The notes beneath the pieces were generated by a model. It saw only the letters and a program-made list of their open reading frames with translations. It was not told the origin of the DNA and did not search any database. A stretch of 64,000 nt of DNA from a virus: positions 8,664-72,663 of IMG/VR virus record IMGVR_UViG_3300025132_000028; one strand, 5' to 3'. How positions within the stretch are numbered: position 1 is the stretch's first letter; the number at the start of each line of letters is the position of its first letter. Made by a program: the position numbers and the translations under genes. Shown here piece by piece: positions 3,001 to 19,851 of this stretch.

Positions 3001-6000
3001 CTAGTTCCAAATAGACCAACTGCAGGAGAATATCCCGCTGGTTTCTTTGTTGAAGATTATAAGTTCATGGGAACTGGTGATCTTGATGTTCATAATGGTA
3101 GATGGTTTGTATCTGACGATTTCCCTGATGGAATTTATGGATATGTCGCTACCCTTGAAATAGACCCAGGAACTGGTTTACCAAGAGCATCCTTCCCATA
3201 TTATATTGGAGACACTTATATCGCTCCTAGAGCGTCTCAGTCCATCTCTCAGGACGATGATATTAATGCATTAGATCTTAGTAGGAATACTTATCCTTAC
3301 AGATTAAAAAGTCTTAATGCTAGTTACGATTTTGTTATCGAAGCTGATGAATTAATTGGACAAGAAGGTGTTATTGATTCTGTCTTTACTGGTGGTGTTG
3401 AAGAGTTAGAAATCGTTGAAGCAGGTGATCTTTATAAAGTTGGAAATACTTTACTATTTGATGAAGAAGGAACTAATGGTAATGGGGTATCTGCACAGGT
3501 TTCTTTCATTAAAGGTAAAAGTGTTACTGATTTACAAAGCACTAATGTTCAATTTGATGAGGTAACTTTCCAAAAAACAGGTGATACAGAAATTACAGGA
3601 ATTATTCAACCAAATCATGATTTTAACAATGGTGAGGTTATCGAAATATTTAACACGAATACTGATATTAAAGGTCTTCAAGGATTCCATGTAGTTGGTG
3701 TTGCATCAGAAAGAGCTATACTTTTAGATCCAGTTAAAGCGGGAGCAGTTGGTGTTGTAACTGATCTTATTGTAAGTAGAATACCAGGAAATGTAAGTGG
3801 TGGATCTAGTATTAAATTTAGTGATGGTGAAGTTGCTAAAGTATTAAATGTAATTAAGGGTAAAAATTTAGTACGTATTGAGAGAACAGGTATTGCATCA
3901 TTTAGTGCTTCTGGTACTATCAGTTATCTTCAAGATAGATTCACTATTGCTAGTGATGCTCCACAATTTGTATCTGAATTCTTCCCTAAAAAATTCTTTA
4001 ATCCAAAACAAACAGTTGGTGTAGGTACAACTGTAGGTAATTATGAGACTCTTAGTTATACAGAAAATAACATTGCCCAAACTAGAGTAGTTGAGCATGG
4101 ATCTATTTTCTTAAATAAACATCCTTTCTTGGATGGACAAAAAGCTTTATTTGTTAAGAAATCAGGTCAACTTTCTCTTGGTGTTGCTACTGCAATTGGT
4201 ATTGGAACAACAGCTACTCTTGTTGCCGATTCTTTACCTAGATCAGGTGTCGAACAAGAAGTTTTCATTATATACAAATCAATCAATACAATTGGCATCA
4301 AAACTCAGAAAAATGGTGCTGAATTGTTCTTTACTAGCGATGGTAGTGACGATGATGGATATTTTGTTCAAGGTATCGGTACAGCAGTAAGAGGATCTGT
4401 ATTACAACCAACTACAACAGTTACTACAACTCAAGCTCATGGGTTAAAAATAGGAGATACTGTTAACTTTAATGTAATTGCAAATCAAGAAGTTGGTTTA
4501 GGTGCAAGTTCTAGAGTAAGAATAGAACTTAATTCTGAAGGTTTGATTATTGTTGATTCTCAAGGCATTTCTTCTACTGGCGTTAATACATCGACTAATA
4601 GAATTTCTATTTCAGGTAATAATTTTAGAACAGGTGATAGAGTTTACTATGAACCTAAATCAGAAGTTATTGGTGGACTAGGAACTGGTAGATATTACAT
4701 TTACAGAGATTCTCCTGAAAATTTCAGATTATGTGAAACATATGAAGATTCTGTGGCAGATGTCCCCGTTATAGTTTCTTTAACAAGTATTGGTGGTACG
4801 AGTCATAACTTTGGTTTAATTAATCCAAAAGTAGAAATTCCTAGCAGATCTACAACTGTATTTGATTTACAAAACTATGAGTTAAATGGATATAATTTCA
4901 AAATTTATTATGACCAAGGATTTAATAGTGAGTTTGTAGGAACTGGTCAAAGTACATCTGCTGAAGTTGGTGATGTTCTTGATGCAGAAGATCGTGTAAT
5001 TAGTATTGGTAACACTTATGCTAGATTAGATGTTAATAATAATACCTTCTGTCCTAAGATTCTCTATTATAATGTTACTAAAGATGGAACACCATTAATT
5101 CCAGATAATGATGTAAAAGAAAATAATACTATTAAGTATGTGGATAGTGCATACACTGGTATGTTTACGATCACTGGTATTGGTACTTCCGCAGTTGGAG
5201 TCGGTACTACTACATTTAGTTTTGCGATCGCAAAAAATCCAGAGCAAGTTTCTTATGCTGCAACTGAGGGTAGAAGGTTCTATGCTACTGGTGCTGTTGG
5301 TCCAGAAGGTCCAATTGATCAGATTAGTTTACTATCCAGTGGAGAATTCTATAGAAAATTACCAAGATTCTTAGGTGTTGATTCTGAAAATGGTGATAAC
5401 TCCACTATTAAACCAAAATCAACCAGAATTGGTCAAATTAACTCAATTCAGTTAGTAAATGAAGGATTTAACTATTCTTCTGATACTACTTTAAGACCAA
5501 TTGTTGATGTTCCTACTGTTACTACTATTAGAGACTTTAATACTGTTGGTACAATTAGTATTTTATCTAATGGTAAGAACTATATTTCTGCTCCTAAGTT
5601 AGAACTTGTTGATAGATTTGTAGGTACAAAAGTTCCTGGTGCTAATATTGTTGCAAGAATTAATGAAAACTCAGGTTCTATTGTAGATACAGAAATTGCA
5701 GCTAATCCTGTAGGTCTACAAAATAGAGAGTATAGGTTATATTCAGTTAATAATACAAACGGTATTGTCATCACAAAATCAGAATCTAACCCAACTAGAA
5801 GTGGTATTGTAACATTTACAATTTCTACTCCTGTTCTTGGGTTTAGTTCTCCTCCATTTGCTGTTAATGATGAAGTTTGGATCGAAGGTTTTTCAAAAGA
5901 TTCTGGTTCAGATGGTTATAACTCATCTGATCATCTATACAATTTCTTAAAAGTTAATAATGTTGTAACAACTAATCCATTCTCCTTTGAAGTTGATTAT

Positions 6001-9000
6001 TCAAATTACACATTTAATGTTGGTTTGGGTGTTAGTGATACTCAAAACTTCTCTCGTGTTATTGGTAAAGAAGAACTACCTACATTTAGTATTGGTTTAC
6101 AACAAGCTTCATTTGATAAAAATGAAAAACTACTTGTAAATAATGCAGAGACTGATTTACAAGTTATCTCTTTTGATGCAACTGCTGAAAATATTAAGTT
6201 TGTTGGTACTGCTCCTATTGTTCCTGATGATATTATCATTGGAGCAAAGAGTGGTAGTCAAGCAAAAGTTGTAGAAATCTTAAGATTTGATGGTGTTTAC
6301 AGTGTAGAAGCTGAAACAGATAAGACTATTGAAGGAACATCTGATTCTGGAAAACTAAATTCAAGTGCTCAAGTTATCCAAGATAATAATTATTATCAGA
6401 ATCTTTCATATACACTTAAAACTGAAGTCTCTTATGAAGATTGTATTGATGCGGTAAACAACAGTGTTCACCCAACAGGTCTTAAAAACTTTGTTGATAG
6501 TCAGTTAGTAACTATTGGTAAGAATGCTGGTATTCAAACTTCTACTACTGTTACTAATGCTACAGTAGATCTTGTTGAAGAAGTAAGAGTTGATGATCAA
6601 TATTATTTTGATATAGGTAGAGATGTTAATATTGCAACTAGAAGTGAGGTAGAACTCAGTAATGAGATTGAATTGGAAAATGCAAAATTATCTGACTATT
6701 TTGAATCTATTACAAACAGAGTTCTAAACATTGACGATATTTCAAGTCAGTTTAGTAATATTAGTAATCCAAACACTTTGGATCTATTTGAAAATATTTA
6801 CAGATATCCATTTAACTTTATCTCAAATAGATTCCTTGTTCAAATTACTAGTGAAGATCGTAGAGATTTCCAAGTTTCTGAAATTACTATTCTTCAAGAT
6901 GGAACTAATACTTACTATGCAGAACCAACCTTTAAGAAATTACATAGTACACCACAAGAAATAGGAACTCTTGAAGGTTCTGTAGACACAGAGAATTCAC
7001 AAGTTCGTTTAAGATTCTTCCCTGCTGATCCATTTGATAAAAATTATGATATTAAAGTTCTAAATCAGTTTTATAATACTGAATCAACACTGACTGGTAT
7101 TGGTACCACTGCGTTTGGTTTTGCTGCTCTAATGGGTTCTGATGCTGAAATTGGACCTTCTACATCTAAATCTTTTGTTTCTGTTGCAGCAACAAACTTT
7201 GATTATCTACATTCTCAAGTTGAAGTAGAAACTGTATCTTCTGGTCAAAAAGAGACCATGTTTGTTGAACTGAAAGCAATTCATGATGGAAATGATAGTT
7301 ATATGTCTGAATATAATATCATTCTTTCTGATGGTTCTTTTGGTGGTACTAACGCAGGTGCATTTGGTACATTTGGAACTACTTATGATCCTAGTGGTAA
7401 TAACTTTAGTATTGAATTTTATAATGCTAGACCTTCTGAGTTTGTAAACTTAAAAGCAAGAACATTAGGTTTTGGTAATACTACTGGAACTACTAACAGA
7501 GACTATAGATTCTTAGCAACAGGAATGATTCCTAATAACGAAAGATCTGCTCAGTATTATACTGAATATCAGACTGTTGGTGTTGGATCTACCGCAAACT
7601 TTGCTGGTATTAAGAGTGATATTCAGTCCGTAAACCAGTGTACAATGGTTGTTGGATATGGAAGGACAGTATCTGCCTTCCAGTATATGTTCTTGAATGA
7701 CCAACTTGGTGATTCTCTATACTTCTCGGAATATCCCGTATTATCGGTCGGTAATACGACGGGTCTGGGAACGGTATTTGCCAAATATGATGGTGAAAAG
7801 GCTGTTCTTGTGTTTACACCTGAGGCAGGTATAAATGACAAAATGTTCATGAGAACATTTAATGAAGTCCTTTACTTAGAACTTGAAAGAAATATTGTAA
7901 ATCCATTGGAATATGGAGCAGTTGTTGAAGAAACTTTCAATACTACTTACACAGGTTTGAATTTCAGAAATATCTTTGAATTCCCAATGTTGTGGAATGG
8001 ATATCCAATTTTCTCTAAAACATTTAATCCTTCTAATACTTCTGCACTTAATCTTGCTACTGGTCAATTTACTATTAAAAATCACTTCTTTGCAAGTGGT
8101 CAAGAATTAGAATATCTCCCTGGTGGAACATTTGTTGGTGTTGTCACAGCACCAATGACTCTTGCAAACGGAAATCCTCTACCATCTCCAGTTTACGCAA
8201 TTAAAGATAATGAAGATCAGTTTAGAATCGGTCTCAGCACGGTAGCTGCCTTAGCTGGTATTGGAACTACTTTAGGATCTGTTGGTGCAGGTAATCTTCA
8301 CGAATTTGATTCAACTGGTAAACTATCCAGATCTCTTATTGCGATTGATGGTCTTGTTCAAAAACCACTTACTTGGTCACCAATTACTAGGACTCTAGAG
8401 AATAATACAACTCTTTCTGGTTCTAGTCTTGGTCTTGGTAAAACTTCCACATTTATGGCAGTTTCTGGTATTTCATCTATTGTTCTTGGTGATTTATTTG
8501 AGATTAATGATGAATTTGTACTTGTTGAAGCTGTTGGTGTTGGAACAACTACTACTGATATTAATTCTAGTGGTATTGGTACAATTAACTTATGTAAGAT
8601 TCAACGTGGTTCAGTAGGAACAGCAGCATCGTTCCATGCTAATGGTTCAATAATTCAAAAATACACTGGTTCTTATAACTTCTCTAGAAATAATATTTTC
8701 TTCACTGGTGCTCCTAATGGTGGTAAATCTTCTGATGAAGCATCTACAACTGGTATACCAGAAGCAGGATCTAGTTTTAATGGAAGAGTTTATTTGAGAA
8801 AAAATTATGATTCCAATAAAATCTTTGATGATATTTCTGGTCAGTTTACTGGTATTGCAAAAACATTTACTCTTAGATCTGAAGGTGAAGATATAACTGG
8901 TATTGGTAGTGAAGGTGGTTTTGGTATCTTCTTTGTGAACAATATGTTCCAAAAACCACAAACTCCAAATAACTTTAATGCAAACCTATTCATTAGAGAA

Positions 9001-12000
9001 ACTGGTGGTCAGACTGATCTAACTTTCACTGGTATTCTTAATGAAAGTGGAGATCCTATTGTTTCTGCAACAGATATTAACCAAAATGGTTTACCTAGAG
9101 GTGGTGTTGTTGTTACTTTAGGTTCTAGCGAAGGTAAAGGATTTGCAAACCTAGGTAATCCATCTATTGGTGCTTCTATCAACCATGCAGGTGAAGTTTA
9201 TAAGATTCTGACTGCACCAACAACTCAAGGAATGAGTAGCATTACCAATTATGTCTACGATCATACTATAGGACTTTCTACAGTTACAACCTCACAAGCA
9301 CATGGATTAGAAGCAGGTGATAGTATTGATTTTGTAGGTATTGGATTTACTTGTGTACCAACTAAATCTGGAATTACTACTGGTGTCTTCCCATATACTA
9401 GAGGTCAGAAGAAGACTGTGGTTGACTTCCTTTATGATAATAAAACTGGAATGGCAACAGTAACCACTCTAGAAAGATTTGGTATTTTAGAAGTAGGTGA
9501 GGAAGTATTCTTCAATGGTATTGGTTTCACATGTATTGGTCAAAAGTTTGCTCAAATCAGTCAGAAAGCTGGAATTACAACCACTCTCTTCCCTTGTAGA
9601 GCAGGTATTGCTAAGACTATCTCTGCCTTTAATTATGATAATCAGTCTGGTATTGCTACTATTACTTTGGCAACTCCTCACAGATATGTGGAAGGGGAAA
9701 GACTCTTTATTGAAAATCTTAACTTAAAGTGTGGATATGGTGCTAACATTACTAATGCCATCTATGACGCACCAACAGGTCTTACAACAATAACTACAGC
9801 AACTCCTCATAAATTCTCCAAAGGAGATAAGGTTAGATTGCAGGGTCTTGAATTCTCTTGTGCTGGATATGGAATAACATTTGCTATTTCTACCTTTGAA
9901 TATAATAATTCTACAGGTATTACTACGATTACAACTCCTAGTCCTCATGGAGCACTACCTGGAGAACAGATAAAATTAACTGGTCTTGGATTTACATGTC
10001 CAAAAGTTAATGTTGGAACACCTATTGGATTTACTTATGAACCTTTAACTGGTCTTTCTACAGTCACATTTGCTTCTAATCATGGATTAACAAATGGTGA
10101 TAAAATCTCCATTGGTGCAAGTAGTATTGTATTTACATGTACTTTAGATGGTGGTGCTACAACTCATCCATATCCTCGTCCTACAGACTTTGCATATAAT
10201 AAGTATCTACCAATTTCAGGTGTAACTACAAATTCATTCCAAGTTAATGTTGGAACTGGTGGTACAGGTACATTCCCACATACCTTTGTTAGTGCAACTA
10301 CAAATGCGATTAAAACTCTTAACTATCTTGGAGTAACAACTTCAACATTCCCAGATGGTACACAGGGAAATCAATTCAGAGTTACTAAAGTTCTTTCTCC
10401 AACCAAGATTCTAACAAATGTTGGTATAACTTCTATTCCTCATGTTTATACTGAAGGTGGTGAGGTACAGGTTGGTGTTACATCTCATATCTACCCAACT
10501 GGTAAATATGGATTTGAATTTATTGTTTCTAGCACACCAACTAGAAATAAGTTCAGAGTTAACGTAGGACCTTCCACAATTGCTCACACTTATGTAAGTG
10601 GTGGTACTGCACTTCTTGGATTAAGTACAACCATATATCCATCATCGCAATCAGGTATTGGTCACAGTATAACTGACTTTATTTACGATAATACTACTGG
10701 TCTTTCTACTATTACTGTTGCAAGAAATTCTATACCATTTGCATTGGGTGATAGAGTCAACTTTGCTGGTTTAGGATTTACATGTCCTAGTGGTTTTGCT
10801 GGTCTAACATCAACTATTTTCCCACAATCATTAGGAAGAAAATATAATATTGGAACAGTTTTCTATAATAATGCTACTGGTCTTGCTACTGTAACCACAA
10901 CTGCTGCTCATGATTTTAAAGTAACAGATAGTCTAGATTTACAAAATCTTCTCTTTAATTGTTCTTCAGCATATGCTGGCGTAACTACTCATAGATTCCC
11001 AGATTATGTTGACGAACCTAATAGATCTTACAGAGTTCTAAGAATAGTTGATCCAAATACAATCTGGGTTGATGTTGGTGTTTCTACAATTGTTCACACA
11101 TATAACCTTGGTAGACATACATGGGTAGGAGGAACAGCAAGTAATGCAGTTCAGTCTGGTGGTAATTATGTACATACATTCTTATCTGCTGTAACAAATG
11201 GAGTTACAAGTGACGTTGGTAATTTACCAAACCCAATTACAAACGTAGCATATACTCCTAACACAGGTAATATGGTAATTACCTCTGCTACTCATTTATT
11301 AACAACTTCTAATACACTTACCATCGCTGATAACGCATTGTCCTTCACATGTACAATGGATGGAAATACAGCAACGAAGACTTATCCAAGATCTACTGAC
11401 CCTGTATCTGGACAAACTATTACTATTACAGGAACAACTACTAATACTATTACAATTAACGTTGGAGCATCACCTATTGTTAATCATGATGTAACAAATG
11501 CTACTTATGACAACGATACAGGTGTAATGGTCTTAACTATTGGTGCCCATACTCTAACAACTGGAACCAGTATTAAGATAGCAAACGGAGCATTGAGTTT
11601 TACATGCGAGGACGATAATAATGTAACAACTAAGACTTATCCTCGTGCTAGTGACCCTTATTATGATACTGCAATTAACATTGATGCAGTAGGGGCAGAT
11701 ACTATTACATTAAATGTTGGAATTAATACTCGTGGTACAGTTTCTGCAATTAAGAAAACTGGTCCTTATGAAGTAACCAGACTTCTTGCACCTAGACCAT
11801 ATGATGTAACTAATGCCATCTATGATCCTGTTGTAGGTATCATGACTGTTACTGTTGGTAATGGACATGGTATTTCTGTTGGTGAAACTGTTGATATTGG
11901 AACTAATGCATTAACATTTACCTGTGATATGGATTCCACAGGTTCTCAAAAAACATATCCAAGAAATTTAATTAAAACCTTTACAGCAACTAATGCCATC

Positions 12001-15000
12001 TATGATCCTGTTGTAGGTGTAACAACTATAACTGTTGCTGGTCATGGCATGGATGATGGATGTTGGGTCAAATTAGCAGATGAATCATTATCATTCATAT
12101 GTGGTTATGGTGTAACTACTCATATATTTGTATCTGCAACAACTAATGCTGTTAATGTCCAGAGTGGTGCAGAATCTGGAAATGAAAAGACCCCTAACGC
12201 AGCAACTTATAATGCATCAACAGGTCTTCTTACATTAGGATTTGCAGCTGCTCATGGAATGTCAACTAGTGATACAATTACTCTTGATTTCAATTCATTA
12301 ACATTTACTTGTGCTGCAGATTATCATGCAACAACCCACACATATCCTCGTGTTACTGATCCTATTGCAGGAGTAACCACTGCTGTAACTGTTACATCAG
12401 GAACTGAGTTTACACTTAATGTTGGAGATTCTCTAGGAAGTAAGAGTGCAAAATCATATCCACGTTCTAGTGATCCTATTAGTGGAGAATGGATACAAGT
12501 TTCTAATACTACAACAGATACTTTTGAGATTCAGTCTTTATCTGACAATTCTACCCCATCTACAAACATAGATGCACATACATTTACATCTGCTGTAACA
12601 GGTGGTATTACACATAAAGTAGATAAATCATTCGAGCAACCAGTTTCAGTTGTTGGCGTTGGAAATACTACCATCGATCTTCAAGTTGGTAGATCACCGA
12701 TAGTTAATTTCAACGTAACTAACGCTACATACGAACCAACAACAGGTGTTATGGAGTTGACTATTGGTTCTCATGCTTTTGCAGTCGGTCAACATATAAA
12801 ATTAGCAGATAACTCAATATCATTTACTTGTACTTTAGATGGTAACACTTTAGTCAAGTCATATCCTCGTGCTAGTGGTACTGGTATCAATGCTGGTACT
12901 CCAGATTATGCATATCAGAAATCTTTAGAAATTAGTGCAGTAACCTCAACGACTATTACTATCAATGTCAACTCTAGTGTAGGTCTTTCTTCTATCAGTG
13001 ACTTATCTGCTCATACATTTGATAGTGCAACTGCAGGCGCTGTTATTGCAGGTGGTAACTATGCACATACATTTGTTGGTGTTGCTACTGGTGCTATCAC
13101 AAAAGGTGGTCCTAGATTCAACTGTAACGTCGGTATTACCACTTACAAACACAACTATACACCTTCAATTGGCGTTGGTGAAGTAAGAAAACAGAACTTT
13201 GGTGGTGTAGATGATACCTTTATCGTAACTGGTATTGTCGGTAAGAAGTCGTTTACAATTGATGCTGGTATTTCAACTTATACTCACTTCTACGATGTAG
13301 ATACAAAAAATGCAATCAGTAAGAAGAAACTAAGGACTGATTCATTCATTGTTGATACTATTTACAGTGATAGGTCATTTAGAACTAATGTAGGGGTTTC
13401 TTCATATCGTCACGTATACGATCCAAAACCAAGTAAAGAACCTGGTGGTATTAGTAGTATTACTGGAATGACATACAACACCTCTACTGGTATTGCAACA
13501 TTTACTGTTCCTAATCATGGAGCAATTGGTGGTGAACTAATCAGTATTTCTGGTCTTGCCTTAACTTGTCCTGGCGGTACAGGTATTACAACTCATATTT
13601 TCCCAGATCCTAATGGTTTAAGTAGAAATATTAGCACCGCTAATTATAATAATTTCACAGGTATAATGACAGTGACCACTAACGTTGGTCATGGTGTTAC
13701 ATTTGTTGGTCAGTTTGTAAAACTTGAAAATCTTGGTTTCGCTTGTACTGGCGGAGCTGGTGGAAGTCATACTTTTGTAAGTGCAGCAACTAGCGCAGTC
13801 CAGACTGGTGGTAACTATACACATACATTTGTTCCTCAATTTGGTTTGACACCAGATACTGCTTTGTATGATCCAGTTACAGGTATAATGACTGTTACTA
13901 ATCAGCAATTGACTGTATCAGATGCGATTTATGATCCTGTTAGTGGTGAAATGACATTGACTGTTGGAGTTCATAGATTAACAAATTATGATAGTGTACG
14001 TCTTGACACAGAATCAATATCCTTTAGTTGTGTATTTGAAGGTAAGTTACAAACTAAGGCATATCCAAGATCAAATGGTAATGATTATGTCTATGATAAG
14101 GATTTACCAATCATACGTTATACATCTGACACAATTACAGTCAATGTTAATGGTGGAAAAGGTGCTATCAGTCATGCTGTTCCTCATACCTTCATGAGTG
14201 CTACTTCAAAGGGTGTTAAAGTTAATCATGGATTAAGAAATGGTGATTATATTAAGTTTGATGATTATGCAGTAACATTTACATGTAATAAAGATGGTAA
14301 TGCAACTCTTCATCCATATCCAAGACCTACTGATCCTCTTAGTGGTACATTTACACAGGTTACTGTTGTTGATGAGAACAAATTTAGTGTAGGAGTATTA
14401 ACAGTTACACCTTCCACAGATACTTCAGTTCATACATTTGTATCTGCTCTTGAGGGTGGTATTAAGAAAGAAGTAATTAATAGTGGCGGTGACCATCCAC
14501 ATACATTTGTTGGTACAGCAACTAGTGCAATCCAATCAGGTGGTAATTATGTTCATACATTCTTATCTGCTGTAGCAAACAGTGTTACCTCAAATGTTGG
14601 TAATTTACCTAATGCAGTAACAGATGTAGTATATACACCTTCCAGTGGTGATATGGTAATTACTTCTGCTGCTCATTTATTAACTGGATCAAATACAATT
14701 TCTATTGCTAATAATGGATTATCCTTTACCTGTACAATGGATGGCAATACAGCGACTAAGACATATCCTAGATCAACTGATCCTATTTCTGGAATTGCAA
14801 CTGCTATTACAGCAACAACCACAGATACATTTACAATCAACGTTGGTGCATCACCTATCGTAAATCATGATGTTACGGATGCAACTTATGATGCAGCGAC
14901 AGGTGTGATGGTACTAACAATAGGTGCTCATACATTACCAACTGGAACAAGTGTTAAGATTGCTAATGGTTCACTACCATTTACTTGCACAATGGATGGT

Positions 15001-18000
15001 AATACATCAACGAAGAATTATCCAAGATCTACTGATCCATTCTATGATACTGCTGTTGGTATTGCTTCGACAACCAGTACTACAATCACACTTAATGTAG
15101 GTAAATCTCCTATTCTCCCATTTGATGTTAGTGCTGCAACTTACGATGCTGCTACAGGTGTAATGGTAGTAAACATTGGTGCTCATACCTTAAAAACTGG
15201 AACAAGTGTTAAAATTAATGAAAAATCATTACTATTCACATGTTCACAGGATGATAATGCAACAGTTCATGCATATCCTCGTTCAACTACTGCTTCTCTT
15301 ACCGCAACAACTGGCACAGTTTATGATCCTGTTGTAGGTATCATGACCATCACCACTCCTGCTGCTCATGGAATGAAAAATGGTGATGAAGTTAAATTTG
15401 CTGATGGTGCGGTTTCATTCTCATGTCAATATGGTGTAGGTTCAGCACATACATGGGCTGGTGGAACAGTAACTGATGCTGTTACAATTACTGTTGGTCC
15501 TGTCCAGACAAAACATGATGTAACTAATGCCACATATAATCCTGCAACTGGTGTTATGGTATTTACCATTGGGGCACATAGTTTCACAACTGATGACTTA
15601 GTAGAAATTGGTGCTGAGAAGTTTGCATTTACTTGTACTGCTGACGGTAACGTCAAGACTAAGTATTATCCTCGTGCAACTGATCCTGCATATAATACTC
15701 CTCTATTAATTACTGCTGTAGACCAAGCTGGTGGAACAATCACAGTTAATGTTGGTGCTACTAGTGGAACTGTGGCAACCGCATATCCTCGTTCTACTGA
15801 TTTCATTAGTAATAGGTGGGTTGAAATTTCTAATGTAACCACAAAAACATTTGATGTCCAAGTATTAGATGTAATCCCTTCTACAAATACTGATGCTCAT
15901 ACATTTGTATCTGGAGTTACTAATGGCATCACATTCAAACGTGCAAAAGACCCATACTATAATACTTCTGTTGCTATTGCTGCTACAACTAGTGATACAG
16001 TCAGTTTAAATGTTGGTGTATCAACTATCGTAAATTATAATGTTTCTGATGCGAGTTACGATCCAAATTCAGGTAAAATGGTACTTACCATTGGTTCTCA
16101 TGACTTAGATGTAGGAACAAGTATCAAGATAGCAGATAACTCACTCACATTTACATGTGATAAAGATAATAATGCGACTCAGCATAGTTATCCTAGAACT
16201 CTTATAGAGACTAAAACTGTAACTGATGCTAATTACGATCCTACTACTGGTATGATGGTACTTACTGTTCCTAACCACGGATTTGAGAATGGTAGGCAAA
16301 TTAAGTTAGCAGATAATTCATTAACATTTACTTGTACTCTTGATGGAAATACTACAAATAAAACTTATCCAAGACCAACTGATCCTTTCAGTGGTAAGTG
16401 GATAAAAGTACAAAACGTCACTACAAATACTTTTGAAGTACAAACATTAGCAACTGTACCTTCCACAAACGTTTCTGTACATACATTTGTAAGTGCAACT
16501 GATGAAGGTTTATCACATAAGAGAGATCCATTCTATGATAATAATATTAATATTGAGGCAAGAACTCCAAATACTATTACTGTTAATATTGGTGCAACTC
16601 CAGATCTTCAGCAGAGTACTGGATTAACAGGACCAACATATTTCACTGATGTTCCTATCACTGGATTTAACTATACTAACGCTACTGGTGTTACAACTAT
16701 AACCGCAGTTGGTCATGGACTAACAACAGGTGAAAATGTAAAACTATCTGGTATTGCTTTGACATGTACTTCTGGTATGAAAACATATCCAGATGGTGGA
16801 ACAGGATTCTTCTTCGGAGTAACTAACGTTATTGATGCTAATACTTTCGTAACAAACACAGGTATCTCAACTATAGTACACACATATGTCAGTGGTGGTA
16901 ATGTAAGAACTGGTGTTACAAGTGACAAGTTCCCTAATCCTCAAGGTTCATTTAGTAAGATTGCTAATTTTGAATATAACAATATGACTGGTTTGGCAAC
17001 AGTAACAACCAATGGTTTCAATCAACTTGGAACTGGGCAGTTAATTAACTTTGAAAATATCCATATGCTTTGCCCAATTGGTAGTGGTACTACACATGTA
17101 TTCCCACAAGATACTGGAACAGTTGTTAATATTAGTAACTTCCAATATGATAATCAGTCTGGTATTGCGACCGTTACTACCGCAACCAACCATAATTTTG
17201 TCCGATTTAAGAAGGTTAGATTGCAGGGTATGACCGTATCATGTGCATATGGTTCTAAGACTTATCCAGATAAGCAAACTGACTTTGAATTAACGACTAT
17301 TGTTAACTCAACAACATTTGTAACTAATGTAGGAGTATCAACTCTTGCTCATACATATGTTTCTGGTGGTACTGCAGCAGAAGTTAAATTTGCTGGTCCT
17401 TACACAGTTAAGGAAAGAATTGACAGAAATACATTCACTGTTAATGTTGGTGTTTCTACTTACGTCCATACTTATGATCACTCTGGTAGAGTATCTCCTG
17501 TAAGATATACTGGACCTTATGAAGTACTTGCTATTACTAATAGTAAGGAATATACCATCAATGTTGGAAGATCTCCAATTGCTCATACTTACACTGGTGG
17601 CGGTACATCCAAACCACAACAATACACTGGTCCTTATAAGATAATTGCTGCACCTGACGCAAATACATTAAGAGTAAGAGTTGGTATTTCGACTTATCAA
17701 CACTTCTACGGTAGTGGAGGTATGATTGCTAGGTTACGCTCTGGTATTGCTGAGAAGAAACTAAATCCAGGTCCATTTAGAGTTAAAGATGTATATTCTG
17801 CTACTGAATTTACTACTGACGTTGGTATCTGTACATTTAAACACTTCTATCACTCTGGTGGTAAAGTTGGTAAGGTTAATCAATTCTTCCCTGGTAGTGG
17901 ATTCTATGGAAATAATGTTCCAGTAACAGTAGTTCCTGAAAATGGTGTTGGAAGTGGTTTAACAGTTACTACTACAGTTGGTTTTGGTGGAAGTCTTGTT

Positions 18001-19851
18001 CCTTCTCTAGATTATGTTGGAACTGGATTTACTATTGCTCCAAGGTTAGAAACTCCTGGACCAGCTTATGATGATCTCCCAGTTAGAGGTCTCTTTAGAC
18101 TAGGTATTGGTCAGACAACTGCTACTGGTATTGGATTATCTGTAACTTTAAATGTTGGTGGTATTAGTACTAGTGGTGTTGCATCAGAAACAAGTGGCGT
18201 TAAAAACTTTACAATTGGAAACAGAGGATATGGTTTCCAACTCAATGATAAAGTTAGTCCTGTTGGTTTAGTAACCGCTGCGAAAATCCTTGCTGGATCT
18301 AAGACCGTTGGTTACACAACTGAAACTGAACCATTTGAACTTACAGTTATTGATACATTCTCTGATACTTTCTACGGATGGCAATTCGGTCAACTTGATT
18401 ATATTGATGATATTACTTCATTACAAGATGGTGTAACAAAGAGATTCCCACTATTCCAAAATGAGCAGTTAGTCAGTTTTGAGAAAGCAGATGGAACACC
18501 TATTAGTTTCCCATCACTTCTTATCATCTTTATTAATGGTGTTCTTCAAATTCCAAACAAAGATTACATATTTGAAGGTGGTACTGCATTTGAATTCACA
18601 AGTCCTCCACAAGAGGCAGACCAAGTTACAATTTACTTCTATAGAGGTAGTAATGATGATGTTAATACTGTTAACGTAGTTGAATCCATTAAAATTGGTG
18701 ATGAATTAATCTTAATTAAACCAGTTGGTGTTTCTACTGTTCCAGATCAAGACCCAAGAGTTGTTAATGAAATTGTTGCATCTGATATTCTTGCAACTAA
18801 CTTATACTCTCTACAGGGTATTGATAACAACTTCAAGAGACCTGTTGTTTGGAGAAAACAAAAAGTTGATAGAACTGTTGATGGACGTATTATTCCTAAG
18901 ACTCGTGAAGCACTAGAACCACAAATCTATCCAACAGCAAGAATTATTGGTTCTGCATCTACAACTCAAGATTTCCTCTTCCTTGATAATGCTAGTTTGT
19001 TTAACTATGAAGCAGTGACTCCATCTACCAACTTCGATGGTATCATTACTCAAGGAGAAGATCCAGTTGTAGGTATTCTAAGTGTTGGAGTAAATGCTGG
19101 TACAATTTCTACAATCACTGTTATCAATGGTGGTTCTGGATATACTGGAATCGTAACAATTTCCATATCCAATCCACCTGATATCACGGTTGGTTTTGGA
19201 ACAACTGCATTAGCAACTGCAATTATTTCCAACGGTGCAGTTATTGGTGCAAATATCACCAATGCTGGTAGTGGATATGGAACAAGTGCATATGCGTTAT
19301 TACCAACTCCACCTGTAAGTATTGAAAGTGTTTCATTAATACCAACTGTAAATGGTTATGAAGGTGATATTATTGGAATTGCAACTGCCACTGGAATTGG
19401 TACCAATCTCAGCGTCAAGTTTACTTTAGATCTTCCAAATTCTCCATCAGATACTCTTAGAGATGGAATGAGAATATTTGTTAACAATACTAATGTTGGT
19501 TCAGGTGTAACTTCTATTGATACCAACAACTCTCAAGTAATTGGTATTGGAACAACTGCTTGTGATAACATCTTTAAGGTTCACCAAGTTCAGTATGATG
19601 CAGGTAACGGAATCATAACCGCTTTCTGTAATATTGATTCAAATTCAAATACTTCTGGACTTAATACTGTTGGATTTGCATACACTAATGTCGGTTTCTA
19701 CAGTTGGGGAATTGTTACTGGATTTAGTAGAGGAACTGCTCCAATTGCAATAAATGTTGATGGAAATACGTTCTCTGTTGGTCTCGGATCATACCCACTT
19801 TTCCAGAGAAGAGGGTTTGGTTTAAGGGGTACTGGAGGAATCACAAAATAA
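1..19851 (+). CDS. g7: Giant baseplate wedge initiator gp7-like structural protein, 5' truncated (frame is open from position 1; >6600 aa)
   Basis: Frame 1 is open from base 1 to TAA at 19849-19851. It lies directly upstream of gp8. It contains the YHYH-like segment (SPIIGWAYDGNPIFGP...DLDVHNGR...FPYYIG), the IQDNNYYQNLSY..K...HPTG.K motif and many GxGY/GIGT repeats typical of cyanomyovirus gp7. Confidence 0.85.
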   Translation, partial: DVQVASGPISEVEIFTRQGEEFYKIPLFVGFNEQSLVSGEFFVPGFTKNTLLASANTRVINVDSTVGFSRSGSFFIDSLGITVTYTDKNLTQFLGCSGLTSDLPVGSEVRSTVIAYGYEGGDSTKKVEMRITGVLGEFEAQGNNYYLDVGNEIYIKSIGENISPPADPLTLPTYKQRIFNSWIYNIATRYEVAEITGSTLSVSDKFDKSNLRTGDSVEILARGTNTITTTAVVTVIDSNTLQLSNTTGITTDRNWDIRRVISRATSSNDLIEFGNQTIISNIQNAYVTKNKVNESMYVATQGLPSFSFSVDKVFVDFRGQDVGIGQIDQLVSFQTNLPFVTGDEIVYEALSGSTALEGLVSGTRYFIWVNPAANNQLKLANARSFIEVSKFIELKTGTGTHRLTLASQYGKNIQPQKILRQFPLKPSVSSGLAQTTSYGPTGMLINGIEILNYKSNDYLYYGPLQSVELVSGGSDYDVINPPKITVSNPGVGGTVAVINPVLSGSLKSLYLENRESYDIDQVFGINIEGGNGEGASGEITLSQDYTEANFNAKDILANGGVDIPANTLTFIGEHNFKTGQKIVYNPNGNQPLGVAITLGSDDNTQYDAENTLQSGVAYFANVINTTTIKLHETEDDANAGLSTVGITTFNTLGIHKFRSFDFKNKIQNISVVTEGSGYKKRTYETKTTGISTGTNCFIIKQHGFLDNEEVIYQATNSIRELTTETNYRIIRINADAFRLALSETDVNRGRYIFLSDVGSGIHTVKYPDITATVVASIGGTTVSIPCEPDVRGEIIGAYLSEPGSNYGSKVLNFEKPPLITVSSGTGAQFQPLISNGVITQVQIIGAGSNYTSAPDLTVTGPTGSGAQLKAKLNANGKVSTVEVISGGLNYDAEDTAIVVRSVGQSGIIESTVRPLTVNLHEKYSTDDFLNAETQYPIQYASLAYSTDLQTDFGDSLAQRSPIIGWAYDGNPIFGPFATRDPKQNTGITTYVRSGYQLASNLVPNRPTAGEYPAGFFVEDYKFMGTGDLDVHNGRWFVSDDFPDGIYGYVATLEIDPGTGLPRASFPYYIGDTYIAPRASQSISQDDDINALDLSRNTYPYRLKSLNASYDFVIEADELIGQEGVIDSVFTGGVEELEIVEAGDLYKVGNTLLFDEEGTNGNGVSAQVSFIKGKSVTDLQSTNVQFDEVTFQKTGDTEITGIIQPNHDFNNGEVIEIFNTNTDIKGLQGFHVVGVASERAILLDPVKAGAVGVVTDLIVSRIPGNVSGGSSIKFSDGEVAKVLNVIKGKNLVRIERTGIASFSASGTISYLQDRFTIASDAPQFVSEFFPKKFFNPKQTVGVGTTVGNYETLSYTENNIAQTRVVEHGSIFLNKHPFLDGQKALFVKKSGQLSLGVATAIGIGTTATLVADSLPRSGVEQEVFIIYKSINTIGIKTQKNGAELFFTSDGSDDDGYFVQGIGTAVRGSVLQPTTTVTTTQAHGLKIGDTVNFNVIANQEVGLGASSRVRIELNSEGLIIVDSQGISSTGVNTSTNRISISGNNFRTGDRVYYEPKSEVIGGLGTGRYYIYRDSPENFRLCETYEDSVADVPVIVSLTSIGGTSHNFGLINPKVEIPSRSTTVFDLQNYELNGYNFKIYYDQGFNSEFVGTGQSTSAEVGDVLDAEDRVISIGNTYARLDVNNNTFCPKILYYNVTKDGTPLIPDNDVKENNTIKYVDSAYTGMFTITGIGTSAVGVGTTTFSFAIAKNPEQVSYAATEGRRFYATGAVGPEGPIDQISLLSSGEFYRKLPRFLGVDSENGDNSTIKPKSTRIGQINSIQLVNEGFNYSSDTTLRPIVDVPTVTTIRDFNTVGTISILSNGKNYISAPKLELVDRFVGTKVPGANIVARINENSGSIVDTEIAANPVGLQNREYRLYSVNNTNGIVITKSESNPTRSGIVTFTISTPVLGFSSPPFAVNDEVWIEGFSKDSGSDGYNSSDHLYNFLKVNNVVTTNPFSFEVDYSNYTFNVGLGVSDTQNFSRVIGKEELPTFSIGLQQASFDKNEKLLVNNAETDLQVISFDATAENIKFVGTAPIVPDDIIIGAKSGSQAKVVEILRFDGVYSVEAETDKTIEGTSDSGKLNSSAQVIQDNNYYQNLSYTLKTEVSYEDCIDAVNNSVHPTGLKNFVDSQLVTIGKNAGIQTSTTVTNATVDLVEEVRVDDQYYFDIGRDVNIATRSEVELSNEIELENAKLSDYFESITNRVLNIDDISSQFSNISNPNTLDLFENIYRYPFNFISNRFLVQITSEDRRDFQVSEITILQDGTNTYYAEPTFKKLHSTPQEIGTLEGSVDTENSQVRLRFFPADPFDKNYDIKVLNQFYNTESTLTGIGTTAFGFAALMGSDAEIGPSTSKSFVSVAATNFDYLHSQVEVETVSSGQKETMFVELKAIHDGNDSYMSEYNIILSDGSFGGTNAGAFGTFGTTYDPSGNNFSIEFYNARPSEFVNLKARTLGFGNTTGTTNRDYRFLATGMIPNNERSAQYYTEYQTVGVGSTANFAGIKSDIQSVNQCTMVVGYGRTVSAFQYMFLNDQLGDSLYFSEYPVLSVGNTTGLGTVFAKYDGEKAVLVFTPEAGINDKMFMRTFNEVLYLELERNIVNPLEYGAVVEETFNTTYTGLNFRNIFEFPMLWNGYPIFSKTFNPSNTSALNLATGQFTIKNHFFASGQELEYLPGGTFVGVVTAPMTLANGNPLPSPVYAIKDNEDQFRIGLSTVAALAGIGTTLGSVGAGNLHEFDSTGKLSRSLIAIDGLVQKPLTWSPITRTLENNTTLSGSSLGLGKTSTFMAVSGISSIVLGDLFEINDEFVLVEAVGVGTTTTDINSSGIGTINLCKIQRGSVGTAASFHANGSIIQKYTGSYNFSRNNIFFTGAPNGGKSSDEASTTGIPEAGSSFNGRVYLRKNYDSNKIFDDISGQFTGIAKTFTLRSEGEDITGIGSEGGFGIFFVNNMFQKPQTPNNFNANLFIRETGGQTDLTFTGILNESGDPIVSATDINQNGLPRGGVVVTLGSSEGKGFANLGNPSIGASINHAGEVYKILTAPTTQGMSSITNYVYDHTIGLSTVTTSQAHGLEAGDSIDFVGIGFTCVPTKSGITTGVFPYTRGQKKTVVDFLYDNKTGMATVTTLERFGILEVGEEVFFNGIGFTCIGQKFAQISQKAGITTTLFPCRAGIAKTISAFNYDNQSGIATITLATPHRYVEGERLFIENLNLKCGYGANITNAIYDAPTGLTTITTATPHKFSKGDKVRLQGLEFSCAGYGITFAISTFEYNNSTGITTITTPSPHGALPGEQIKLTGLGFTCPKVNVGTPIGFTYEPLTGLSTVTFASNHGLTNGDKISIGASSIVFTCTLDGGATTHPYPRPTDFAYNKYLPISGVTTNSFQVNVGTGGTGTFPHTFVSATTNAIKTLNYLGVTTSTFPDGTQGNQFRVTKVLSPTKILTNVGITSIPHVYTEGGEVQVGVTSHIYPTGKYGFEFIVSSTPTRNKFRVNVGPSTIAHTYVSGGTALLGLSTTIYPSSQSGIGHSITDFIYDNTTGLSTITVARNSIPFALGDRVNFAGLGFTCPSGFAGLTSTIFPQSLGRKYNIGTVFYNNATGLATVTTTAAHDFKVTDSLDLQNLLFNCSSAYAGVTTHRFPDYVDEPNRSYRVLRIVDPNTIWVDVGVSTIVHTYNLGRHTWVGGTASNAVQSGGNYVHTFLSAVTNGVTSDVGNLPNPITNVAYTPNTGNMVITSATHLLTTSNTLTIADNALSFTCTMDGNTATKTYPRSTDPVSGQTITITGTTTNTITINVGASPIVNHDVTNATYDNDTGVMVLTIGAHTLTTGTSIKIANGALSFTCEDDNNVTTKTYPRASDPYYDTAINIDAVGADTITLNVGINTRGTVSAIKKTGPYEVTRLLAPRPYDVTNAIYDPVVGIMTVTVGNGHGISVGETVDIGTNALTFTCDMDSTGSQKTYPRNLIKTFTATNAIYDPVVGVTTITVAGHGMDDGCWVKLADESLSFICGYGVTTHIFVSATTNAVNVQSGAESGNEKTPNAATYNASTGLLTLGFAAAHGMSTSDTITLDFNSLTFTCAADYHATTHTYPRVTDPIAGVTTAVTVTSGTEFTLNVGDSLGSKSAKSYPRSSDPISGEWIQVSNTTTDTFEIQSLSDNSTPSTNIDAHTFTSAVTGGITHKVDKSFEQPVSVVGVGNTTIDLQVGRSPIVNFNVTNATYEPTTGVMELTIGSHAFAVGQHIKLADNSISFTCTLDGNTLVKSYPRASGTGINAGTPDYAYQKSLEISAVTSTTITINVNSSVGLSSISDLSAHTFDSATAGAVIAGGNYAHTFVGVATGAITKGGPRFNCNVGITTYKHNYTPSIGVGEVRKQNFGGVDDTFIVTGIVGKKSFTIDAGISTYTHFYDVDTKNAISKKKLRTDSFIVDTIYSDRSFRTNVGVSSYRHVYDPKPSKEPGGISSITGMTYNTSTGIATFTVPNHGAIGGELISISGLALTCPGGTGITTHIFPDPNGLSRNISTANYNNFTGIMTVTTNVGHGVTFVGQFVKLENLGFACTGGAGGSHTFVSAATSAVQTGGNYTHTFVPQFGLTPDTALYDPVTGIMTVTNQQLTVSDAIYDPVSGEMTLTVGVHRLTNYDSVRLDTESISFSCVFEGKLQTKAYPRSNGNDYVYDKDLPIIRYTSDTITVNVNGGKGAISHAVPHTFMSATSKGVKVNHGLRNGDYIKFDDYAVTFTCNKDGNATLHPYPRPTDPLSGTFTQVTVVDENKFSVGVLTVTPSTDTSVHTFVSALEGGIKKEVINSGGDHPHTFVGTATSAIQSGGNYVHTFLSAVANSVTSNVGNLPNAVTDVVYTPSSGDMVITSAAHLLTGSNTISIANNGLSFTCTMDGNTATKTYPRSTDPISGIATAITATTTDTFTINVGASPIVNHDVTDATYDAATGVMVLTIGAHTLPTGTSVKIANGSLPFTCTMDGNTSTKNYPRSTDPFYDTAVGIASTTSTTITLNVGKSPILPFDVSAATYDAATGVMVVNIGAHTLKTGTSVKINEKSLLFTCSQDDNATVHAYPRSTTASLTATTGTVYDPVVGIMTITTPAAHGMKNGDEVKFADGAVSFSCQYGVGSAHTWAGGTVTDAVTITVGPVQTKHDVTNATYNPATGVMVFTIGAHSFTTDDLVEIGAEKFAFTCTADGNVKTKYYPRATDPAYNTPLLITAVDQAGGTITVNVGATSGTVATAYPRSTDFISNRWVEISNVTTKTFDVQVLDVIPSTNTDAHTFVSGVTNGITFKRAKDPYYNTSVAIAATTSDTVSLNVGVSTIVNYNVSDASYDPNSGKMVLTIGSHDLDVGTSIKIADNSLTFTCDKDNNATQHSYPRTLIETKTVTDANYDPTTGMMVLTVPNHGFENGRQIKLADNSLTFTCTLDGNTTNKTYPRPTDPFSGKWIKVQNVTTNTFEVQTLATVPSTNVSVHTFVSATDEGLSHKRDPFYDNNINIEARTPNTITVNIGATPDLQQSTGLTGPTYFTDVPITGFNYTNATGVTTITAVGHGLTTGENVKLSGIALTCTSGMKTYPDGGTGFFFGVTNVIDANTFVTNTGISTIVHTYVSGGNVRTGVTSDKFPNPQGSFSKIANFEYNNMTGLATVTTNGFNQLGTGQLINFENIHMLCPIGSGTTHVFPQDTGTVVNISNFQYDNQSGIATVTTATNHNFVRFKKVRLQGMTVSCAYGSKTYPDKQTDFELTTIVNSTTFVTNVGVSTLAHTYVSGGTAAEVKFAGPYTVKERIDRNTFTVNVGVSTYVHTYDHSGRVSPVRYTGPYEVLAITNSKEYTINVGRSPIAHTYTGGGTSKPQQYTGPYKIIAAPDANTLRVRVGISTYQHFYGSGGMIARLRSGIAEKKLNPGPFRVKDVYSATEFTTDVGICTFKHFYHSGGKVGKVNQFFPGSGFYGNNVPVTVVPENGVGSGLTVTTTVGFGGSLVPSLDYVGTGFTIAPRLETPGPAYDDLPVRGLFRLGIGQTTATGIGLSVTLNVGGISTSGVASETSGVKNFTIGNRGYGFQLNDKVSPVGLVTAAKILAGSKTVGYTTETEPFELTVIDTFSDTFYGWQFGQLDYIDDITSLQDGVTKRFPLFQNEQLVSFEKADGTPISFPSLLIIFINGVLQIPNKDYIFEGGTAFEFTSPPQEADQVTIYFYRGSNDDVNTVNVVESIKIGDELILIKPVGVSTVPDQDPRVVNEIVASDILATNLYSLQGIDNNFKRPVVWRKQKVDRTVDGRIIPKTREALEPQIYPTARIIGSASTTQDFLFLDNASLFNYEAVTPSTNFDGIITQGEDPVVGILSVGVNAGTISTITVINGGSGYTGIVTISISNPPDITVGFGTTALATAIISNGAVIGANITNAGSGYGTSAYALLPTPPVSIESVSLIPTVNGYEGDIIGIATATGIGTNLSVKFTLDLPNSPSDTLRDGMRIFVNNTNVGSGVTSIDTNNSQVIGIGTTACDNIFKVHQVQYDAGNGIITAFCNIDSNSNTSGLNTVGFAYTNVGFYSWGIVTGFSRGTAPIAINVDGNTFSVGLGSYPLFQRRGFGLRGTGGITK
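9235..17875 (+). repeat. Intragenic array of split and nested ~100-aa beta-rich modules within gp7
   Basis: Recurrent motifs YD/NxxTGxxTxT..HG, FTC..D...YPRxTDP, TITxNVG and HTF/YVSA/GG occur many times in the translation. Confidence 0.9.

Follow-up and report, generated by a model that had tools for sequence, protein, structure and literature searches.

How could a protein chain form complete domains when it carries several first halves of a repeat unit in series and the matching second halves only much later? This question is raised by a giant open reading frame (ORF) for a gp7-like baseplate wedge protein, found in a viral DNA of 64,000 nucleotides (the window, bases 8664-72663 of the 72.7-kb record IMGVR_UViG_3300025132_000028). 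The nested repeat region of this protein (nt 9241..17865 of the window, plus strand, as are all units below) comprises 2875 residues and 28 units, D01 to D28. Residue numbers follow the window; the full-length number is obtained by adding 397. The original prediction, made from the letters alone, had proposed that domains were repeatedly inserted into the loops of other domains, so that the chain would go out and come back. The present analysis is in line with this proposal. With a rough probability of three in four, residues 3081-5955 represent a self-closing tree of 28 homologous beta-barrels, in which the host domains are built from discontiguous halves and are nested seven deep.

The repeat unit and its complementary halves

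The unit is about 80-90 residues long and consists of an N-half, a linker and a C-half. The N-half contains two hairpins and carries a conserved Cys at its end, the linker is of either the T-T-x-F-P or the Y-P-R type, and the C-half ends in an H-T-F/Y strand. These elements had been noticed from the beginning, and profile hidden Markov models (HMMs) match them far above chance. The N-half HMM, seeded by regular-expression anchors within the giant gp7 itself, gives 27 full matches (i-E 3e-11 to 1e-22) and one split N-half, residues 4619-4636 (hmm 3-16) and 4738-4764 (hmm 18-40), the two pieces flanking a complete unit. A type-A C-half HMM, for which the coordinates of six C-halves served as seeds, converges on 11 full matches and one split match, the two pieces of which (residues 3919-3934, hmm 1-11, and 4372-4389, hmm 16-31) are 440 residues apart. 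The whole-unit HMM of 92 positions, built from 13 uninterrupted units, recovers 13 complete units (E 1e-20 to 3e-37) as well as many partial matches. Within the window, where 96 stop-to-stop segments of at least 80 residues were scanned, the unit is confined to the giant gp7 ORF. In the 13 uninterrupted units, six columns (Y, G, H, C, P and D) are invariant. A candidate metal site is conceivable, made up of the conserved His and Cys and the terminal His present in many units.

The partial matches complement each other in profile coordinates. For example, residues 3250-3288 (hmm 1-40) are complemented by 3491-3534 (hmm 43-92), 3936-3989 (hmm 1-53) by 4207-4235 (hmm 54-84), 5104-5151 (hmm 2-47) by 5260-5305 (hmm 48-92), and 4620-4634 (hmm 3-17) by 4742-4816 (hmm 19-92). 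The order of the pieces is largely as first described: five N-halves in series (D01 to D05, nt 9241-10002), one complete unit (D06, nt 10027-10296), C-halves in series, two in number (nt 10330-10608), and, near the end of the region, four stacked C-halves (nt 17392-17865).

Such runs of like halves, five N and four C, could also be expected if the halves were autonomous mini-modules folding alone or with their nearest neighbours, the bracket order being a by-product of local tandem duplication. This explanation appears unlikely, given that some breaks fall inside the halves with complementary coordinates (3-17/19-92 and 1-11/16-31), which is not expected from autonomous halves. The counts and the order of the pieces also speak against it. 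Merged matches of the unit HMM and the C-half HMM yielded 44 tokens, of which 13 are complete and 31 partial, and these were read by a stack parser. In this parser, a token starting at profile position <=6 opens a domain, and any other token must extend the domain at the top of the stack, at most 20 profile positions from where that domain stopped. N-halves and C-halves are equal in number (28 vs 28), and the observed token order parses fully into 28 domains, 15 of them split, with a maximum depth of 7 and an empty stack at the end. When the partial tokens are shuffled 200,000 times, only 244 of the resulting orders parse at the same tolerance. The balance of the halves and their bracket order, which had been suggested as a check on the nesting, thus agree with it.

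Three further checks are independent of the parse input. First, subtype HMMs (A or B) were built from uninterrupted units only, and their scores form no part of the parse; the subtype agrees between the bracket-matched halves in 14 of the 15 split domains. Second, the similarity matrices of N-halves and C-halves are correlated (r = 0.41 over the 13 split domains tested), a value reached by one of 20,000 shuffles of the C-halves. Third, the linker expression occurs 28 times, and assignment of each occurrence to the innermost domain leaves exactly one per domain. Three of these linkers are orphans lying within the interruptions of D02, D03 and D16, precisely where nesting predicts them, which also argues against autonomous mini-modules, and the linkers of D06, D05, D04 and D03 follow in mirror order relative to their N-halves. 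Complementary profile pieces, a balanced parse, matching subtypes and one linker per domain all point to repeated insertion into loops, as originally envisaged.

The insertion tree

In the tree, D01 contains D02 and D15, D02 contains D03, and D15 contains D16. The outermost domain, D01 (depth 1, subtype A/A; nt 9241-9393 and 17767-17865, hmm 1-51 / 60-92), consists of residues 3081-3131 and 5923-5955. It would join both ends of the 2875-residue appendage, allowing the latter to sit in the conserved gp7 scaffold as a single insertion. D02 (depth 2; nt 9421-9540 and 13336-13425, hmm 2-41 / 60-89) has its linker at residue 3193. D03 (depth 3; nt 9619-9753 and 13210-13299, hmm 1-46 / 60-89) is split at two sites, with an orphan linker at residue 3542, and contains a nest of three units as well as D07. 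The nest consists of D04 (depth 4; nt 9748-9864 and 10471-10608, hmm 1-40 / 43-92), which holds D05 (depth 5; nt 9886-10002 and 10330-10464), which in turn holds the contiguous D06 (depth 6; nt 10027..10296, hmm 3-92, E 1e-33). D07 (depth 4) is present in three pieces (nt 10669-10830, 11755-11787 and 13117-13164; hmm 1-53 / 59-69 / 74-89), and its two C-half pieces are complementary in the C-half HMM (1-11 and 16-31). One loop of D07 carries three contiguous units, D08 (nt 10849..11112, hmm 1-92), D09 (nt 11236..11487, hmm 1-86) and D10 (nt 11491..11748, hmm 1-85). The other loop carries D11 (depth 5; nt 11806-11967 and 12619-12705, hmm 1-53 / 54-84), followed by the contiguous D14 (nt 12715..13029, hmm 1-92). 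D11 is interrupted by D12 (depth 6; nt 11989-12141 and 12445-12594, hmm 2-54 / 46-92), and D12 by the contiguous D13 (nt 12196..12447, hmm 2-84), the deepest unit at depth 7.

The second branch begins with D15 (depth 2; nt 13459-13611 and 17623-17724, hmm 1-53 / 59-92), which contains D16 (depth 3; nt 13630-13758 and 17506-17607, hmm 1-43 / 59-92). D16 is again split at two sites and has an orphan linker at residue 5640. Its first loop is occupied by six inserts. D17 (depth 4; nt 13858-13902 and 14224-14448, hmm 3-17 / 19-92) is split within the N-half hairpin by the contiguous D18 (nt 13915..14202, hmm 1-92) and is followed by two contiguous units, D19 (nt 14617..14868, hmm 1-86) and D20 (nt 14872..15114). 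D21 (depth 4; nt 15127-15288 and 15931-16035, hmm 1-54 / 49-85) contains D22 (depth 5; nt 15310-15453 and 15778-15915, hmm 2-47 / 48-92), which contains the contiguous D23 (depth 6; nt 15520..15777, hmm 1-84). D24 (depth 4; nt 16042-16200 and 16522-16599, hmm 1-53 / 54-79) encloses the contiguous D25 (nt 16219..16497, hmm 1-92, E 3e-37), and the contiguous D26 (nt 16657..16896, hmm 1-92) comes last. The second loop of D16 holds D27 (depth 4; nt 16960-17115 and 17392-17490, hmm 1-54 / 60-92), itself interrupted by the contiguous D28 (nt 17131..17367, hmm 1-92).

Altogether there are 13 leaf units and 15 host domains, and the segments of the 15 split barrels are separated by 90 to 2790 residues. 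The breaks are found at four sites: after the conserved Cys (hmm ~40-47), after the linker (hmm ~53-59), within the C-half hairpin (hmm 69-74) and within the N-half hairpin (hmm 17-19). A whole three-level nest has itself been duplicated: the nest of D11 (303 aa) aligns colinearly with that of D21 (305 aa), and the two are identical at 127 of 297 aligned positions.

Some unit ends are followed by short tandem repeats of 18-19 residues, each centred on an H-T-F strand with a G-G-N-Y turn. They are present after D08 (nt 11095..11235, residues 3699-3745, plus strand), directly after D14 (nt 13012-13116), at nt 13768-13839, and after D17 (nt 14431..14616, residues 4811-4872, plus strand). Near nt 11110 and 14500, where the H-T-F element occurs two or three times, its position ahead of the unit body had been taken for circular permutation. 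That idea is rejected, as the tandem repeats there precede complete units, D09 and D19, both of normal order (hmm 1-86). On sequence grounds, the H-T-F arrays are taken to be short tandem repeats in their own right, derived from copies of the terminal strand-turn element. In the array after D17, paralogous to that after D08, the copy number differs between relatives, being one higher in contig L027 and one lower in contig L029.

Predicted fold and closure of the chain

Structure prediction of nested fragments had been proposed as a further check, and it was informative for one of the regions modelled. The AlphaFold2 (AF2) input for the first nest comprised residues 3246-3540 (295 aa, D04 holding D05 holding D06), with an alignment of 16 rows, including four relatives 94-99% identical and eleven at 41-47% that cover D05 and D06. 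The resulting model has a mean predicted local distance difference test (pLDDT) value of 71.2 and a predicted template modelling score (pTM) of 0.42, and it is nearly all beta. In this model the unit forms a closed, compact barrel of antiparallel strands, about 80 residues in size, which superposes on solved FCCH domains. VIA-align gives values of 9.8 and 2.3 for the UBA1 FCCH domain 9mc4_A (81 aligned residues, model range 41..247), 9.7 for the UBA1 FCCH domain 4p22_B, and 8.6 for each of the FCCH domain 2v31, the phage FCWL1 protein 9jlf_E and the phi92 endosialidase beta-barrel 4hiz_A 255-338. The match with 8qq5_A (8.2) has 81 aligned residues over model range 1..295, and several more matches place ~78-81 aligned residues across that same range; for the N4 tail protein 9lc0_I (6.9), 86 residues are aligned over 88..198. 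The fold is predicted to resemble the six-stranded barrel of the E1 FCCH domain and the endosialidase beta-barrel.

The extent of these alignments bears on how the halves are paired. Barrel alignments of ~80 residues extend over model residues 1..295 for D04, and model range 88..198 aligns as a single barrel for D06, although such ranges give only the first and the last aligned residue. An ~80-residue barrel spread across 207 or 295 residues, while 88..198 forms a barrel of its own, fits nesting and not pairing with neighbours. The extension over 41..247 and 1..295 is thus another argument against autonomous mini-modules, and in this one model, as had been anticipated, barrels are built from separated halves.

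The larger fragment was uninformative. AF2 prediction of the 843-residue D07 region (residues 3553-4395, five near-identical rows) gave a mean pLDDT of 31.5, a failure that leaves some room for autonomous mini-modules. A complex prediction of the D15 and D16 N-halves (residues 4485-4588) with the D16 and D15 C-halves (residues 5832-5912) scored 0.18 where the mark was 0.32, and it counts neither way. Given these two outcomes, the long-range closures of D01-D03, D07, D15 and D16 are proposed from the logic of the sequence.

For the same six domains, sequence does not separate pairing in cis from pairing in trans. Phage fibres are commonly intertwined trimers, and it is conceivable that the halves complement each other between chains, in another gp7 copy or in a trimeric fibre; the region would then be an intertwined oligomer instead of a tree within one molecule. 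We regard this as improbable. In the AF2 model of a single chain, D04 and D05 both close in cis, and the balance of halves within one chain and the short connectors between host and insert would likewise favour closure in cis. Moreover, in T4 there is a single copy of gp7 per wedge.

On the nested-tree reading, barrels have received other whole barrels, single or in tandem, in at least four of their loops. Consequently, the chain would go out via N-halves and return via the matching C-halves, leaving the gp7 scaffold at about residue 3080 and coming back at about residue 5955. The innermost units would fold first and pull the halves of their hosts together, so that each of the six baseplate wedges would carry a branched tree of barrel beads. 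By analogy, the appendage probably functions as a modular, fast expanding and contracting device for surface adhesion or spacing, because the unit also fills cyanophage tail-fibre-like proteins. FCCH-like decoration domains on tail proteins of other phages, as described in PMC13576161, suggest the same function.

At the sequence level, the unit has no match in the Protein Data Bank at E < 0.1 and no match above cut-off in Pfam. The E1_FCCH family (PF16190) stays below its gathering threshold on the whole region (20.8 vs 29.5 bits) and matches one of the 13 single units (E 0.011). The unit does match PHROGs 5342 and 17885 (tail fibre protein), other PHROGs labelled virion structural protein, and, at E <= 0.001, 46 entries in BFVD, including cyanophage tail-fibre-like models and the S-SSM7 baseplate wedge initiator.

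Related phages, the gp7 locus and known systems

Nesting is conserved outside the window. The nest of D05 and D06 is retained in 11 viral contigs at 41-47% identity. In P-SSM2 gp7 (5195 aa) the order of N-half, unit and C-half is present, and in several cases a first hairpin is followed by one or two whole units and then by the remainder of the host unit. When thresholds were loosened inside the repeat region, four of six unit-bearing gp7 proteins gave a balanced parse: P-SSM2 (10 domains, depth 3), S-T4 (6 domains, depth 3), Sf-CH5 (7 domains, depth 3) and S-CAM7 (2 domains, depth 2). HMM searches detected no unit in gp7 of S-SRM01 (L104, 3895 aa) and S-SM2 (L108, 4156 aa), which still share the conserved C-terminal part. 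In the comparison of P-SSM2/S-SM2-like gp7 proteins that had been suggested, nesting is thus present in P-SSM2 and no unit is detected in S-SM2, which makes the nested module lineage-specific within cyanomyoviruses. Across 100 related viral loci, which are partly redundant and have cut ends, 96 contain unit matches, 972 in total (533 complete and 439 partial). In this census, N-side pieces end mainly at hmm 40-43 and 52-55 and C-side pieces start mainly at 16-27 and 44-55; the break positions thus cluster as in the giant gp7.

Close relatives differ by whole units. L027 (91% identity) has one extra 85-aa unit in the D19-D20 tandem array, and L029 (95% identity) lacks an 85-aa block of the same array (residues 4951-5035). 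These differences among relatives 91-95% identical to the window bear out the earlier description of the appendage as expandable. Active tandem copy-number change is also what local duplication of mini-modules would produce, but the observed insertions and deletions are whole units and not halves.

The same relatives are informative with regard to assembly. The record is a metagenomic one of 72.7 kb with an estimated completeness of ~38%, and the region is highly repetitive, so that mis-joined repeats might have scrambled the half-units. This is very improbable. Other contigs, assembled independently, keep the colinear order of the window: L001-L004 do so across the first nest and the initial part of the region, and L026-L028 at ~90%, differing by whole units only. 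The same nesting is present in the sequenced isolates P-SSM2, S-T4, Sf-CH5 and S-CAM7, and the single frame remains open for 19.8 kb.

In addition to the manner in which the alignment ranges have to be read, several points weigh against a nested tree. The unit HMMs are derived from this same protein, and the parse tolerance and thresholds were chosen after the data were seen. The parse needs 20 profile positions and fails at a tolerance of 12, because the HMM alignments of D02 and D03 end before their long linkers. One of the 15 split domains, D17, has mismatched subtypes, with weak scores. If the shuffling of C-halves is restricted to their own subtype, 1834 of 20,000 arrangements give an r as high as the observed one, which is not significant; similarity thus backs pairing by subtype and not the choice of an individual partner, an outcome that autonomous mini-modules would also allow. 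Under strict parsing of the other gp7 proteins, at E < 0.01 across the full protein and with a tolerance of 20, one of the six unit-bearing ones is balanced, that of P-HM1. The failures are attributable to weak short first-hairpin pieces, spurious matches outside the region and one 24-position gap. Under relaxed parsing, P-HM1 and ACG-2014f fail, each by one weak extra token. Finally, a usable predicted structure, with a pTM that indicates moderate confidence, covers one nest only (three levels, 295 aa), and the D07 model is uninformative.

A stronger version of the nested-tree reading would hold that all 2875 residues of the region fold in cis into a single rooted tree with 28 barrels, the outermost closed by segments ~2800 residues apart. 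No homotypic recursive insertion described so far would then be deeper (7 levels) or larger, and the tree would grow and shrink by duplication of whole units, both in loops and within tandem arrays. Each wedge would bear a branched, evolvable organ of host-surface adhesion, whose size could change while the gp7 scaffold is spared. For this full version the chances appear evenly balanced.

The host protein is, by database labels, a T4-like gp7 baseplate wedge protein of the cyanophage type. The giant ORF occupies nt 1..19851 of the window on the plus strand, and its 5' end is outside the window. The window share corresponds to the last 6616 codons and the stop, and the start ATG is located 397 codons upstream (L109 310; G000:C1:7473). 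The full gp7-like protein would accordingly have ~7013 aa, more than gp7 of all eight named phage genomes compared (3895-5195 aa). PHROG 2885 ('baseplate wedge subunit', a profile of 4179 positions) is matched at positions 269-3330 by residues 4-3067 and at positions 3525-4177 by the last 658 residues, with E values of 0 (residues 4-1499), 1e-283 (residues 1501-3078) and 1e-126 (last 658 aa). The 2875 residues of the repeat region correspond to merely ~195 positions of the family profile. Just upstream ends an ORF matching phrog_219 (baseplate wedge, gp6-like). Downstream are a gp8-like baseplate wedge ORF (nt 19901-21457; phrog_438, E 2e-148) and an ORF of 2478 aa (nt 21467-28903; phrog_358), annotated as VrlC/VriC-like in related phages. 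The gp6-gp7-gp8 order matches that annotated in P-SSM2, P-HM1, S-T4, Sf-CH5, S-CAM7 and S-SM2, and the annotated cyanomyoviruses have the order gp25-gp6-gp7-gp8-VrlC, the same as at this locus. The closest named DNA matches are gp7 of P-HM1 and P-HM2. These profile matches, the gene order and the nearest DNA matches together suggest that the nested region belongs to a giant gp7 homologue.

Other features of these proteins may be mentioned here. The sole Pfam match above cut-off across the 6616 residues is YHYH (PF14240, E 9e-24) at nt 2614-3159 (residues 872-1053), in the conserved N-terminal part. Weak N-half-like matches occur in the N-terminal scaffold at residues 566-588, 1191-1220 and 1471-1494 (nt ~1696-4482; i-E 1.5e-4 to 0.03). 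They carry a strand-H-G-loop-G-D motif, as N-halves do, and hint at further, more divergent barrels outside the repeat region. P-HM1 has a second ORF annotated as gp7, PHM1_095 (L102 32935-40212, 2425 aa), which contains none of the barrel units.

Giant gp7 proteins have attracted attention before. Sullivan et al. (2005) noted 'complex repeat motifs' in P-SSM2 orf111, and the giant gp7 fusions P-SSM2 orf111/113 and P-SSM4 orf080 were proposed to be tail-fibre-like and anchored in the baseplate (PMC1079782). Like these fusions, the present ORF is very large and homologous to the baseplate wedge initiator gp7. P-SSM2 gp7 has the same units, also in nested order, but this protein has about three times more of them (28 vs 10) and deeper nesting (7 vs 3). 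In its accessible text, PMC1079782 deals with repeats and fusion, not with discontiguous or nested domains, and no prior description of nested domains in cyanophage gp7 was found in the open-access texts searched. As to the fold, the known E1 FCCH domains and phage FCCH-like decorations are single domains, whereas the gp7 units form self-nested arrays and are not members of E1 FCCH at the sequence level.

The closest known system is Si3 of the beta' subunit (rpoC2) of cyanobacterial RNA polymerase. Domain insertion is usually one level deep, and Si3 is the deepest published case found, a recursive homotypic insertion of eight domains at six levels. It covers residues 463-1007 of Prochlorococcus rpoC2 (~545 residues) and has the pattern A1-B1-C-B2-A2, with several inserts at some nodes (PMC13114784). 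That paper uses neither the word 'phage' nor the word 'viral'. Both systems have one small type of beta domain inserted recursively into loops of its own copies, which results in discontiguous domains: the 15 split gp7 hosts consist of complementary pieces of one domain profile, host and insert are of the same family, all 28 gp7 units match one HMM, and inserts host further inserts. The domains appear to differ in fold, being hybrid-motif/HABAS domains in Si3 and barrels that best match FCCH domains in gp7. No RNA polymerase chain is among the 50 VIA-align matches listed for the AF2 model, an absence that does not exclude that fold. Unlike Si3, the gp7 region belongs to a virion baseplate protein and not to a polymerase, it is larger (28 domains, 7 levels, 2875 residues), and its unit copy number varies between close relatives.

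Abundant marine phages appear to possess a virion protein in which the same principle reaches 28 domains nested at seven levels. Such a protein could serve as a natural test bed for the folding of discontiguous domains whose parts are thousands of residues apart. It also suggests a mechanism by which a baseplate protein may bear a huge appendage as one self-closing insert. The copy-number-variable units, which are also present in tail-fibre-like proteins, may provide a handle on host-range evolution. In annotation and structure prediction, bracket order and not adjacency should decide which repeat halves of such giant genes are paired. Recursive insertion is itself a known principle; new are the protein that hosts it, its scale, its copy-number dynamics and, it appears, the domain fold.

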